DNA from: an uncultured Tepidisphaeraceae bacterium
GTDB taxonomy: Bacteria > Planctomycetota > Phycisphaerae > Tepidisphaerales > Tepidisphaeraceae
Direction of reading: 5' to 3'
Length of the DNA: 29,236 bases
Assembly: GCA_964420285.1 (NCBI GenBank)
Contig: CAYQTE010000062.1
Span: forward strand, 1 to 29,236
Positions 1 to 10,219 of the stretch are shown one piece after another (position 1 is the first letter of the stretch; every line of letters begins with the position of its first letter). The position numbers were made by a program, and so were the translations under genes. The notes beneath the pieces were generated by a model that was not told the origin of the DNA, did not search any database, and saw nothing but the letters and a program-made list of their open reading frames with translations.

Positions 1-242
1 TCGGACTCGGCCGGGCAAAGTTCAGACTATTTCAGCACATCTTCGAACTTTTTCGAGACATTTGGAGCGTTTTTTCGTCGCGGTTGGGAGGCGAAACCGC
101 GATATTCGGCTGGAAATGAGGGTGCGGCCAAAGCGGTGCGGCGTCGCGGTTTCTGCCTAAGCGACGGTGTGGCAATGAGTTATCGGAAAGCGGACGCGAT
201 CCCATGGGCGGGCGACAGGGGCCGCCGCTTGGAGAGATCGTG

Positions 243-683
243 CTACTTCACGATGGCCAACTGGTCGGGTGCGTTGATGATGATTTCAGGCCGGCCGCGG
301 TAGAGGACCACGTTGCCCGTCACGCGCACCGTTTTGCCGGTGATCGCCTTGGCGATGTCGTTGTTGTAGGCGGCCAGGACGGAATCGCGGCCGCTGCTGA
401 GGATGACGGCGTAGAACTGGGAATCGGCGGTGTCCTTGAAGTTGAGTGTGATAACGCTGTCGGCGACGGTGACGTTATCGATGACGCCGACGACCATGAC
501 GGTGGGCATGGCGGCCTGGATGCCGGATTTGTCGGAGGCGTTGATGGTCATCATGCTGGGGGCCGTGGTGGCGGCGGCCTGCGTGGTGGGCGCGGTTGTC
601 GGCGCGGCGGCGGTGACAATTGCGAAGGCGCAAAGGACCGTGGCCAGCAGTGGCAGGGCGAGAATGATTGTCGAACGACGCAT
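243..683 (-). CDS. Secreted hypothetical protein (signal peptide; possibly OB-fold/BOF-like)
   Basis: ORF 243..779 minus. The internal Met at 683 gives MRRSTIILALPLLATVLCAFA, a typical Sec signal peptide, with GGAG 5 nt upstream of that ATG. The mature part is Thr/Ala-rich followed by a beta-rich C-terminus. Confidence 0.55.
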   Translation of the reverse strand: MRRSTIILALPLLATVLCAFAIVTAAAPTTAPTTQAAATTAPSMMTINASDKSGIQAAMPTVMVVGVIDNVTVADSVITLNFKDTADSQFYAVILSSGRDSVLAAYNNDIAKAITGKTVRVTGNVVLYRGRPEIIINAPDQLAIVK

Positions 684-5316: not shown

Positions 5317-8200
<2,884 letters not shown>

Positions 8201-8353: not shown

Positions 8354-8466
8354 TTCGTTGGTGGCTATATCGGTAGGGTCACACCCGTTCCCATTCCGAA
8401 CACGGTCGTTAAGCCTGCCGAGCCGATGATACTGCTTCAGCGGGAAAGTAGGTCACTGCCAGCGTT
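8354..8466 (+). rRNA. rrf: 5S ribosomal RNA
   Basis: Conserved 5S core (CCCGTTCCCATTCCGAACACGG...GTAGGTCACTGCCAGCG). The terminal helix pairs CGTTGGTGG with CTGCCAGCG. Exact ends are uncertain by a few nt. Confidence 0.85.
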
Positions 8467-8470
8467 AAAC

Positions 8471-8512
8471 AAGAACCCCGGCCCCTTCAACAAGGGCCGG
8501 GGTTCTTTTTTG
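8471..8512 (+). terminator. Rho-independent terminator of the rrl-rrf operon
   Basis: Perfect 14-bp stem AAGAACCCCGGCCC / GGGCCGGGGTTCTT with a 9-nt loop, followed by TTTTT. Confidence 0.85.
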
Positions 8513-8551
8513 CGCCGGCGGTCAGGTATAATCCCATCGACGGCCGTGCGT

Positions 8552-9049
8552 ATGGAAAAAAGCAGCGTTGAAGCCATCGTCCGCGCGCTGAATCAACACC
8601 AGGTTCGATACCTGATCGTCGGCGGCCTTGCCGTCGTTGCCCACGGCTATATGCGCTTTACCGCCGACATTGATCTGGTACTGGCCGTCGACCGCGACAA
8701 CCTCACCAGGGCGGTTGAGGCGATCAAATCGCTCGATTATCTCCCGCGCGTGCCCGTTGCATTCGAGGAGTTCATTGAACCGGCAAATCGGCGGCGATGG
8801 GCGTCTGAAAGGAACATGCTAGTGTTTTCTTTGTATTCGACGAAGCACCAAACGACGGCCATCGACCTGTTTCTCGACCCGCCTGTGGATTTCGACGCCG
8901 CCTATTCAAGAGCCGTCCCGCTTGACGTGGCGTCGGGCATTGTGGCCACCTTTTGTTCGCTGGAAGACCTCATCACGATGAAGACCTTCGCCGGCCGGCC
9001 AAGAGATCTGGAAGACATTGCACACCTTCGCGAACGGAAGAGACCATGA
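8552..9049 (+). CDS. Minimal nucleotidyltransferase (Pol-beta superfamily) protein
   Basis: 165 aa. NTase signature hG[GS]-x(9-13)-DhD present as GGLAVVAHGYMRFTADIDL. The stop TGA overlaps the ATG of the next gene (ATGA). Paralog of the CDS at 14871..15347. Confidence 0.7.
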   Translation: MEKSSVEAIVRALNQHQVRYLIVGGLAVVAHGYMRFTADIDLVLAVDRDNLTRAVEAIKSLDYLPRVPVAFEEFIEPANRRRWASERNMLVFSLYSTKHQTTAIDLFLDPPVDFDAAYSRAVPLDVASGIVATFCSLEDLITMKTFAGRPRDLEDIAHLRERKRP

Positions 9050-10143
9050 GCAAACAACCAAAACTACCTTCCGATCAAGCGTGGCCGCGGGGTTTCGAAG
9101 GGCACGAGGCGGACCAGCAAGCGCGGTTAGCCGAGTTGCCTTTGTCCGAAAAGCTGGCGTGGCTGGAAGAGGCGCATCGCCTGGCACTGCACCTCCAAGA
9201 AGGCGCCGGACGGGCAGACGATTCGACCTCGGTGGAAGACTTGACCCTTCCGGGCGTTGACCGCGGCATACCGGCGGATTATGTGACACAAGTTTTTACT
9301 GCCGACGATTTGGCGCGCCTAGCGAACAAGACAGGGAAATATTTCCGCAGATGGCTGCGAGCCGAGCTAGAGCGGGGCAATACGCTTGTCGTGGATCACA
9401 CCCATGGAGAGCGCTGGCGTTTTTCCAAGGATGAGGCTGAGCAGTTGTTGAGGATGTTCCGTTCCAGCGCAAACTCTTCTTCGTCGAGGAAAAGGACTAC
9501 GCCAATGTCATTTGATTGTCACACTGGCACACTGGCGGGGAGCTTAGGAGCGGAGGCTGATCGCCTTTTGCCGGCTTTCGATAGATCGGTTCGGCCGCAA
9601 GCTCTTGATGAATTGCCGACCGATCCTGGAGTCTATTCCTTTTGGACTGCTGGCCCCAGGGCCATTTGTGATTTGGGATTGGATGACATGGAAGGCGAGA
9701 AATCGCTCCTTGTCCGTCCACTTTATATCGGCAAGGCGGAGGATTCCATCGCCAAGAGAATTCCAACGCAACATTTCAAGACAGGGAAAACCGGATGGTC
9801 GACGGCGCGCCGAACATTTGCTGCACTTCTTGGATTTAGGAGCTGTCTACGACCGACAAAAATGAAGGCACCGACTTCGAAGCAGTTGCGAATTCTGATC
9901 GCGAATTATGGCGTTGTCCCGGCAGATGAGGCAAAATTGACCGAATGGATGATGTCGAATCTTCTCATCCGCGCGGCGGCATCCCGATGGACTCCTCTGG
10001 AGGCTTTGGAGAACGAGTTAATGTTGCGCCTGCGACCGCCACTAAACCTCTTCAAGGCGAACTGGTCGAATCCATGGCGCGATCGAATCGAGCGAGCGCG
10101 ATCCATGATGAGAGAAAACGCCAGGGGTGCGGCGGTGATGTGA
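9046..10143 (+). CDS. Fusion protein: excisionase/MerR-type HTH (HTH_17-like) plus GIY-YIG-like nuclease domain
   Basis: 365 aa. Acidic N-terminus. The HTH_17-like segment is DDLARLANKTGKYFRRWLRAEL...GERWRFSKDEAEQLL. The GIY-YIG-like segment is PGVYSFW...LYIGKAEDSIAKRIPTQHF, then a conserved Arg (STARRTF) and LENE...N. The GIY to YIG spacing is longer than canonical. Translationally coupled to the upstream NTase. Confidence 0.65.
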   Translation: MSKQPKLPSDQAWPRGFEGHEADQQARLAELPLSEKLAWLEEAHRLALHLQEGAGRADDSTSVEDLTLPGVDRGIPADYVTQVFTADDLARLANKTGKYFRRWLRAELERGNTLVVDHTHGERWRFSKDEAEQLLRMFRSSANSSSSRKRTTPMSFDCHTGTLAGSLGAEADRLLPAFDRSVRPQALDELPTDPGVYSFWTAGPRAICDLGLDDMEGEKSLLVRPLYIGKAEDSIAKRIPTQHFKTGKTGWSTARRTFAALLGFRSCLRPTKMKAPTSKQLRILIANYGVVPADEAKLTEWMMSNLLIRAAASRWTPLEALENELMLRLRPPLNLFKANWSNPWRDRIERARSMMRENARGAAVM

Positions 10144-10219
10144 CGATCGCTGAGAGCAATCCGTAACGCCCGAGCATAGCGTCAAGTCTGCCAGGGTAAT
10201 GGCGGGGCGCGAAGGGAGA

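Follow-up and report, generated by a model that had tools for sequence, protein, structure and literature searches.

The closest described relatives of the locus considered here are, on the one hand, two-gene toxin-antitoxin (TA) modules built around a minimal nucleotidyltransferase (NTase) of the Pol-beta type and, on the other, GIY-YIG homing endonucleases. Among the former, MenAT1 is the nearest: residues T39, D41, K137 and D152 of the MenT1 toxin have been tested experimentally (PMC11375011), and the MenA1 antitoxin is a two-helix protein of 68 aa with a dispensable, disordered C-terminal tail (PMC10435456). Here, we analyzed a stretch of 29,236 nt from an uncultured Tepidisphaeraceae bacterium (Planctomycetota; contig CAYQTE010000062.1 of assembly GCA_964420285.1), hereafter called the window. 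An NTase gene of 165 codons, open reading frame 1 (ORF1, 8552-9049), starts there 40 nt past the T-run of the terminator of a 23S-5S ribosomal RNA (rRNA) operon, and its TGA overlaps the ATG of ORF2 (9046-10143, 365 aa) as ATGA at 9046-9049. An earlier note on this DNA had described both the position and the overlap accurately, and had read the two genes as a TA or defence module pairing an NTase with a helix-turn-helix (HTH)/GIY-YIG nuclease. We consider it highly probable that they are instead two independent, horizontally acquired cassettes stacked 3' of the 5S terminator, and that ORF2 was joined across the two when a stop codon was lost. Comparison with related loci shows how the locus is built and how it evolved, as detailed below; TA activity, the targets of the nuclease and any functional weight of the fusion are inferred.

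ORF1 matches the Pfam family PF19502 (DUF6036) with an E value of 2e-10, above the gathering threshold, and falls just under that of AbiEii (PF08843/DUF1814; 20.4 bits for a cut-off of 22.5). This match and that of a profile to MenT1 bear out its earlier assignment to the Pol-beta-type NTases, with a correction to the motif, which had been given as GG-x11-DIDL and reads GG-x13-DIDL (G24G25-x13-D39xD41); T37, K144 and D152 are likewise conserved. MenT1 of Mycobacterium tuberculosis (8AN4) was the sole relative in the PDB recovered by sequence (phmmer, E 5.9e-5; profile, E 5e-9). The profile alignment pairs T39/D41/K137/D152 of MenT1 with T37/D39/K144/D152 of the NTase, and RFTRDVD of MenT1 with RFTaDvD, so that all four functionally tested residues are conserved; the same four are invariant across 46 homologues of the NTase. 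The predicted structure, with a predicted local distance difference test (pLDDT) score of 90.7, also has MenAT1/MenT1 as its top Foldseek match (E 4e-7; template-modelling [TM] score, 0.70). Altogether, 469 homologues were found, the best 120 of which are listed at 56 to 73% identity, and the family spans Planctomycetota, one Candidatus Eisenbacteria metagenome-assembled genome (MAG) and at least one Acidobacteriota MAG. Homologues at 70 to 73% identity occur in the loci L009, L010 and L011. A scan of genome contigs with the single NTase protein yielded only 3 loci, the patterns being too specific.

The homologous loci indicate that what the ATGA couples to the NTase as its partner comprises just the first ∼63 aa of ORF2. 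At all nine of the other close-homologue loci that we checked (L009, L010, L011, L012, L013, L043, L044, L046 and L047), which represent seven distinct contexts, a separate gene for a small helical protein of 63 to 74 aa lies directly 3' of the NTase gene. In seven of them (L009, L010, L011, L043, L044, L046 and L047), it overlaps the NTase stop codon, which in L009, L010 and L011 takes the form of an ATGA ahead of an ORF of 66 to 74 aa; L012 (Tepidisphaeraceae) and L013 (Ca. Eisenbacteria) likewise have the small gene. The free-standing partners of L009, L010, L011, L043, L046 and L047 are 43 to 58% identical to ORF2 aa 1-63, for instance over the stretch ...SDQTWEQGWDGHEREQRRRLANLPLAEKLAWLEEAQKVATHLQQ... 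of the alignment. An exhaustive search with ORF2 aa 1-65 returned 194 cluster representatives, nearly all of 54 to 95 aa, and the NTase-partner pair recurs in the unrelated neighbourhoods of L043-L050. In P0233 (208 aa), NTase and partner are combined in a single chain, a "Rosetta-stone" fusion that links the two. For the partner, the model predicts two helices (aa 20-29 and 33-53; pLDDT of 83 to 91 for aa 21-50). No Pfam, NCBIfam or PADLOC family and no PDB sequence matched it, nor did MenA1; the dispensability of the MenA1 tail nevertheless fits a partner that tolerates a C-terminal extension.

The remainder of ORF2 corresponds to a gene of its own. Homologues of ORF2 are rare (19 in a first search), and those closest to its nuclease part, P0002 (57% identity), P0003 (49%) and P0140 (47%), have no equivalent of ORF2 aa 1-79 and begin exactly opposite V80, which is encoded by a GTG at 9283-9285. 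P0002 and P0003, each of about 281 aa, cover only the last 77% of ORF2, and none of the three has an NTase upstream. These comparisons bear directly on the possibility that the NTase and the HTH-GIY-YIG protein constitute a genuine two-component TA or defence system, in which the NTase would AMPylate or otherwise control the nuclease, or the reverse. The ATGA coupling and the common orientation of the genes in the window are what such a system would present, and L001 has an NTase pair on the opposite strand, which places some NTase near two of the three rrn-linked nuclease loci. However, it is the small-partner segment that is coupled to the NTase, and at every other locus of the NTase family that was checked, this segment is a gene of its own. 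The nearest nuclease homologues also have something other than an NTase upstream, namely the terminator in L001 and L002, an IrrE gene in L051 and a 148-aa ORF in L052, and the NTase family is found in many contexts without any GIY-YIG gene. The neighbourhood check found the two genes adjacent only in this species, a restriction explained by the loss of a stop codon there. The two-component model is thus largely refuted by the neighbourhood data, and we regard it as highly improbable. What survives of the original proposal is the translational coupling, once reassigned from the nuclease to the ∼63-aa partner segment, and the TA flavour of the locus, which is carried by the MenT1-like NTase and this partner; the pairing of NTase and GIY-YIG nuclease as a two-gene system is not supported.

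How the two genes came to share one reading frame is apparent from L011, a Tepidisphaeraceae MAG locus with a 23S 3' end 94% identical to that of the window. Its 5S gene (638-745) and terminator are followed by the NTase gene (832-1338) and the partner gene (1335-1535). Nucleotides 1501-1572 of L011 (72 nt) repeat the 5S 3' half at 97% identity and are followed by a terminator-like hairpin, and the partner gene takes its final nine codons and its stop from this 5S sequence (GCC GAT GAT ACT GCT TCA GCG GGA AAG TAG, i.e., ADDTASAGK and a stop). In the window, the 60 nt that follow the partner segment are 34/60 identical, ungapped, to the 5S gene at 8411-8470, a score reached in 0/5000 shuffles (best shuffle, 33). 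The DNA alignment of the window with L011 is gap-free across this relic (L011 1492-1551), and the L011 TAG stands opposite a TTG at 9241-9243, which encodes Leu66 and lies where the 5S sequence reads GGGAAAGTAGGTC. By these comparisons, ORF2 is a three-part chimera rather than a uniform protein. Its AlphaFold model (pLDDT of 81) agrees, with three folded modules parted by disordered linkers, and the stretch encoded by the relic is predicted to be disordered (pLDDT <50). The spacer between the relic and the ancestral nuclease start is without counterpart in P0002 or P0003. We also observed that P0164, the top match of the partner, ends in AADGLDAAGK, which looks like a variant of the same 5S-derived tail.

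Could the fusion be a functional innovation, with a frame kept under selection because the winged helix-turn-helix (wHTH) domain autoregulates the operon or because release of the toxin depends on the state that the nuclease is in? Nine contigs from several metagenomes carry the 365-aa ORF unchanged, DNA-binding domains are frequent in type II antitoxins, and the terminator copy that follows the 5S copy in L011 is missing from the window, so that the genes are probably cotranscribed. On the other hand, all nine contigs carry one and the same sequence, which allows no test of selection, and a stop-free, in-frame join of 14 codons has a chance of about 1 in 6, such that a neutral accident is plausible. 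The linker is derived from rRNA and predicted to be disordered. Moreover, P0188 (326 aa; 4 contigs of up to 133 kb), a second, independent fusion that joins the partner to an unrelated alpha/beta hydrolase encoded downstream, suggests that read-through fusions of the partner gene arise sporadically. We therefore consider a functional innovation very unlikely and the fusion probably a neutral accident. The gene downstream in L007 seemed at first to differ; it proved to be the same sequence under another gene call.

The 5S relic of the window is one of several, since a blastn search with the window 5S gene revealed that, in related loci, additional partial copies of this gene lie on the right-hand side of the cassettes. 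In L001, of which the full 23S gene is 87.7% identical to that of the window, the 5S gene and its terminator are followed after 33 nt by the nuclease gene. L002 starts at the 3' end of a 5S gene with its terminator, and the nuclease gene begins 25 nt past the latter; there is no NTase upstream of the nuclease gene in either locus. Both L001 and L002 carry a clear 5S copy and a terminator copy after the nuclease gene (0/1000 shuffles each), which begin near 5S position 20-26 and run through the terminator copy, whereas the 5S copy of the NTase cassette has its left boundary at position ∼52-58. A 5S likeness at the equivalent place of the window (10170-10192) is not significant, as 67/1000 shuffles were as good in local alignment; similarly, no significant 5S relic was found after the cassette of L009, and a search for target-site duplications around the NTase cassette of the window returned only short chance repeats. 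L009, with a 23S 3' end 97% identical to that of the window, and L011 have the NTase cassette behind the 5S gene and no nuclease. Across the five genomes compared, the nuclease is thus present (window, L001 and L002) or absent (L009 and L011) at the same site among relatives with 93 to 97% identical 23S 3' ends, and the flanking genes beyond the rRNA differ among the window, L001 and L002. GC content at third codon positions (GC3) is 0.67 in the NTase gene, 0.65 in the partner part and 0.57 in the nuclease core, compared with 0.75 to 0.82 in the three genes that come next downstream. Judged by this low GC3, both cassettes are compositionally foreign, which sustains the horizontal acquisition suggested in the earlier note on the basis of a lower GC content.

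The same flank houses further modules. In L009, the 5S terminator is separated from the NTase cassette by a Gp49/HigB-like toxin gene (E 5e-9) and an HTH_3/HTH_31 antitoxin gene (L009:2177-2844), a putative third kind of TA module at the rrn 3' site as judged from its domain matches. In L001, a divergent DUF2204/DUF6036-like NTase of 175 aa and an overlapping partner of 121 aa without Pfam match are encoded on the minus strand (L001:8985-9855), convergent with the GIY-YIG gene, just past the 5S relic and ∼500 nt from the nuclease gene. No integrase or transposase family was found in the cassettes of the window, L001, L009 or L011. Taken together, the rrn 3' flank looks like a hotspot for selfish cassettes in this clade. 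L009 also has an insertion of ∼650 nt within its 23S gene (L009:163-812), at the equivalent of window 23S nt ∼1913 and absent from the window 23S, which encodes a LAGLIDADG_1 protein (ORF 349-813) and is presumably an intron-borne homing endonuclease.

One explanation for the partial 5S copies is that they are leftovers of tandem 5S duplication or unequal crossing-over, between which unrelated genes later came to lie. The relics of L001 and L002, extending from 5S position ∼20-26 through a terminator copy, are compatible with a decayed second 5S gene, and the lack of an integrase or transposase in any cassette accords with such an origin. This explanation is nonetheless unlikely in our opinion: a 5S copy accompanies each of two unrelated cassettes, and the left boundaries of these copies differ; both cassettes are compositionally foreign, and the in-frame fusion of the L011 5S copy to a truncated partner gene points to a recombination junction. 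At the opposite end of the spectrum, the 5S 3' end of this planctomycete clade could be a dedicated cassette-capture site, opened by the wHTH-GIY-YIG enzyme as a site-specific endonuclease, and thus an integrase-free counterpart, at 5S genes, of tRNA islands or integron arrays. MenT-like and HigB-like TA pairs and the GIY-YIG nuclease would each be framed by a copy of the 3' half and terminator of the 5S gene, gained by homologous recombination through the universally conserved rRNA and lost between the repeats. We put this forward as a speculation of low probability. We found no description in the literature of 5S-bounded cassette stacking or of rRNA sequence as the source of a stop codon, and nothing specific on PF20815, DUF6036 or 5S-targeted islands; a paper on rRNA insertions in the Candidate Phyla Radiation (CPR) reported no insertions in 5S genes.

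The gene of the nuclease itself is free-standing, with rrf to one side and moaC to the other on a bacterial chromosome. Its product is a new addition to the GIY_YIG_2 family and carries an excisionase-like head. ORF2 aa 225-353 match PF20815 (GIY_YIG_2) with 55.3 bits for a cut-off of 22.4 (E 9.6e-15), as do 19/19 aligned homologues, and the model displays the GIY-YIG alpha/beta fold, with resemblance to I-TevI and T4 EndoII. The candidate catalytic residues Y197, Y227, R238, H243, E322 and N334 are invariant in the 19 sequences, such that the nuclease is predicted to be catalytically intact. The C-terminal GIY-YIG domain recognized in the earlier note is therefore upheld by family match, predicted fold and six catalytic residues; its GIY-to-YIG spacer (Y197 to Y227) is indeed long, though not peculiar to this protein, since it is common to all 19 members. 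The excisionase/MerR-type HTH is likewise recovered, as a wHTH that matches a PHROG excisionase family (E 2e-4) and folds like MerR, RacA and BldC; it has no Pfam or NCBIfam family and only a weak PADLOC match to mad1 (E 0.0035). The two sequences singled out in the earlier note, GERWRFSKDEAEQLL and YIGKAEDSIAKRIPTQHF, are present at ORF2 aa 121-135 and 227-244, respectively.

Two roles can be envisaged for this protein. It may be a free-standing homing-type endonuclease that acts on the 5S rDNA and its terminator, with breaks that promote copying of the cassette and, secondarily, duplicate part of the 5S sequence and open a landing pad for other cassettes. An architecture in which a flexible linker connects the nuclease to a DNA-binding domain, with a fold like that of I-TevI and T4 EndoII, is consistent with this role, and so are a gene that adjoins a highly conserved gene in three genomes with differing other flanks, its presence or absence at the same site among close relatives, its 5S-copy flanks and its low GC3. 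In the wider family, a tRNA gene lies no further than 1.3 kb away at 6/28 distant GIY_YIG_2 loci, and truncated copies are found beside tRNA genes. Against this role, cleavage is a prediction, the rrn linkage could stem from one ancestral insertion inherited vertically, target duplication is not usual for homing endonucleases, the NTase cassette of L011 has 5S-copy borders without a GIY-YIG gene, and other members reside in contexts that resemble defence islands (IrrE/M78, CBASS and HTH neighbours). This last observation favors the second role, that of a single-gene antiphage nuclease, for instance type IV-restriction-like, residing in an integration hotspot. P0147 lies beside genes for a cyclic oligonucleotide-based antiphage signaling system (CBASS) and for HTH-M78, P0140 (L051) is coupled to an upstream Peptidase_M78/IrrE gene, and the weak mad1 match of the wHTH points the same way. 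Conversely, the nuclease has no significant PADLOC family match, a methyltransferase or other defence partner is absent from the neighbourhood in the window, and this role leaves the rrn linkage with 5S-copy borders unexplained. We view homing as a tentative possibility, somewhat unlikely when taken singly, and grant antiphage defence the same modest standing; that the protein is a DNase of one or the other kind, selfish or defensive, is the most likely reading, with the two roles about equally likely.

The subfamily offers few further members. P0141 (L052) is coupled to an upstream 148-aa ORF without Pfam match, P0140, P0141 and P0147 are not visibly rrn-linked, and a scan of metagenome contigs with the nuclease alignment retrieved only distant GIY_YIG_2 members and no further rrn-linked ones. 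P0141 lacks the wHTH, and the 148-aa ORF with which it shares an ATGA (L052:330-776) appears GIY-YIG-like by eye (VYVIV...VAYVGTT...R...E...N), so that L052 may hold a tandem GIY-YIG pair. GIY_YIG_2 fragments in L039 (773-976), L040 (428-631) and L041 (130-333) stop just past the HF-x-GxTG-x-ST-RR motif, 170 to 360 nt from convergent tRNA-Asp or tRNA-Arg genes; upstream of them is an HNH-like ORF, and they resemble the borders of islands that have decayed at tRNA genes.

The explanation that we favor, stacking of two cassettes followed by stop loss, can be formulated as follows. Cassette 1 (8552-∼9262) is most likely a MenAT1-like TA or abortive-infection module. By analogy with MenT1/MenA1, the NTase would add nucleotides to tRNA 3' ends and thereby block translation, and the small partner would bind and sequester it, possibly inducing its autophosphorylation at T37. 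Cassette 2 (9283-10143) encodes a predicted DNA-targeting nuclease with a wHTH reader on a flexible tether. Each cassette would be bounded on its right by a partial 5S copy. The partner gene would first have run into such a copy and taken the TAG inside it as its stop codon; the copy then decayed, TAG became TTG, and the frame now continues for 14 codons, in phase, into the nuclease gene. The outcome is a 365-aa chimera with an antitoxin-like head, a disordered linker, a wHTH and a GIY-YIG domain, next to which the short nuclease could still be produced from the GTG at 9283. Since 5S half-copies flank the cassettes, gain could occur by double crossover within the rRNA and loss by recombination between the repeats, which fits their patchy presence among relatives.

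Several points weigh against this scenario. Taken alone, the 5S relic of the window is only 57% identical to the 5S gene and borderline given a best shuffle of 33/60; its identification leans on colinearity with L011, and it is the L011 bridge that makes it convincing. The wHTH/GIY-YIG subfamily amounts to five members found, and the three that are rrn-linked may share one ancestral event. The nine contigs with the 365-aa ORF being one sequence, neither translation of nor selection on the long form can be deduced from them. The partner differs from MenA1 and is encoded downstream of the NTase, whereas menA1 usually lies upstream, so that the TA analogy rests on the toxin; finally, toxicity, neutralization and nuclease activity are all predictions.

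The surroundings of the two cassettes (see the table) are those of a split rRNA operon. Neither a 16S gene (Rfam) nor tRNA genes (ARAGORN) were found across the 29-kb window, and the presence of 23S-5S without 16S fits the unlinked rRNA genes of planctomycetes; among named relatives, Tepidisphaeraceae MAGs come closest to this locus. The hairpin of the terminator (8467-8511; -30.6 kcal/mol; z, -5.0) was equalled by 0/200 shuffles and was also recovered as an inverted repeat in a scan of the window. In the short leader of the NTase cassette, the TATAAT box is a putative promoter. Leader nt 8513-8529 pair 17/17 with 8608-8624, within NTase codons 19-25, and none of 500 shuffles was as good; one arm of this inverted repeat spans leader and TATAAT box. 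Pairing at the same offset reaches 14/17 in L011 and does not exceed chance at the other six loci tested. The 17-nt inverted repeat may act in cis as a regulatory structure, in RNA or DNA, that is peculiar to rrn-linked NTase copies.

Table. Features of the rRNA 3' flank and its cassettes in the window (positions in nt; aa numbering is that of ORF2)
Feature	Position (nt)	ORF2 (aa)	Strand	Basis or remark
23S rRNA gene	5317-8199		+	Rfam
5S rRNA gene (rrf)	8357-8464		+	Rfam RF00001, 76.9 bits; ends the 23S-5S operon and anchors the apparent insertion hotspot
Intrinsic terminator of the rRNA operon	8467-8512		+	GC-rich stem of 14-18 bp, then T6 run
Leader of the NTase cassette	8513-8551		+	Perfect TATAAT at 8527-8532, 20 nt 5' of the ATG
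MenT1-like minimal nucleotidyltransferase, DUF6036, 165 aa, putative toxin	8552-9049		+	Pfam, profile, fold
Cognate small partner, putative antitoxin	9046-9202	1-∼52	+	Homology to free-standing genes
Two helices		20-53		ORF2 model
Disordered segment		54-80		ORF2 model
Decayed copy of the 5S 3' half, equivalent to 8411-8470	9203-9262	53-73	+	Codes for the linker residues listed
Short in-frame open spacer	9263-9282	73-79	+	Joins the 5S relic to the ancestral nuclease start
Stand-alone-type excisionase-like wHTH and GIY-YIG nuclease gene, 286 codons from GTG 9283	9283-10143		+	Homologues
wHTH (beta-alpha-alpha-beta-alpha winged helix)	9292-9483	83-146	+	Structure model
Disordered segment		147-160		ORF2 model
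GIY-YIG domain, confidently modelled	9532-10137	163-364	+	Model, Pfam
Possible second 5S relic	10170-10192		+	CCGAGCATAGCGTCAAGTCTGCC vs 5S CCGAACACGGTCGTTAAGCCTGCC; located where L001 and L002 carry 5S copies

These results remove a false lead, the apparent NTase/GIY-YIG pairing being an annotation-level artefact of stop-codon loss, and direct attention to the actual module, a widespread DUF6036 MenT1-like NTase (469 homologues) with a previously unnamed partner of ∼65 aa (194 partner clusters). This module would represent a new branch of the MenAT family, with a new type of antitoxin and a reversed gene order, a proposal that is directly testable. The locus further records an unusual event, in which a protein gene appears to have drawn its C terminus and stop codon from a duplicated rRNA fragment and then to have merged with its neighbour, and it points to an rrn 3' flank, bounded by 5S half-copies, that collects selfish cassettes in this clade.

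Compared with known systems, cassette 1 is closest to MenAT1, which it resembles in the sequence and fold of the NTase, including the RFTxDxD motif and two further residues tested in MenT1, a Lys and the distal Asp, in a very short two-helix partner with a disordered tail, and in the adjacency and coupling of the two genes. It differs in the length of the NTase (165 versus 196 aa) and in its Pfam assignment to DUF6036, just below the AbiEii gathering threshold, and in a partner that has no sequence similarity to MenA1, lies 3' rather than 5' of the NTase and is here fused to a nuclease. With AbiE (AbiEi/AbiEii) and the type VII minimal nucleotidyltransferase (MNT)/HEPN systems, the cassette shares a minimal Pol-beta NTase in a two-gene mobile defence or TA module. 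However, no COG5340/AbiEi wHTH antitoxin is found upstream of the NTase, no HEPN domain (RX4-6H) is found in either ORF or in the partner segment, and in MNT/HEPN the NTase is the antitoxin, whereas that of the window resembles the MenT toxins.

Cassette 2 shares with the GIY-YIG homing endonucleases (I-TevI, I-BmoI and T4 Seg) the Y...Y-x10-R-x4-H...E-x11-N catalytic set, a flexible tether to a DNA-binding module of the helix-turn-helix type, a free-standing position beside stable-RNA genes, as for SegB among the T4 tRNA genes, and presence or absence at a fixed site in related genomes. It departs from them by the N-terminal location of the DNA-binding domain, the reverse of I-TevI, by 29 residues inserted between its GIY and YIG strands, by its residence in a bacterial chromosome rather than in an intron, intein or phage, and by its flanks, which are partial duplicates of the neighbouring gene. 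The restriction enzyme R.Eco29kI is more distant, with 15% identity; the window nuclease carries an N-terminal wHTH, and the genes called within 10 kb include none with a methyltransferase domain. As to the arrangement of the whole, integrase-mediated islands with att repeats at tRNA genes offer the nearest parallel, in that cassettes lie 3' of a stable-RNA gene, a direct repeat of the 3' part of the gene keeps the latter intact, and cassettes stack. In the loci described here, in contrast, the target is a 5S rRNA gene, no integrase is present at any locus, the cassettes measure just 0.8 to 1 kb, and one junction lies inside a coding sequence.

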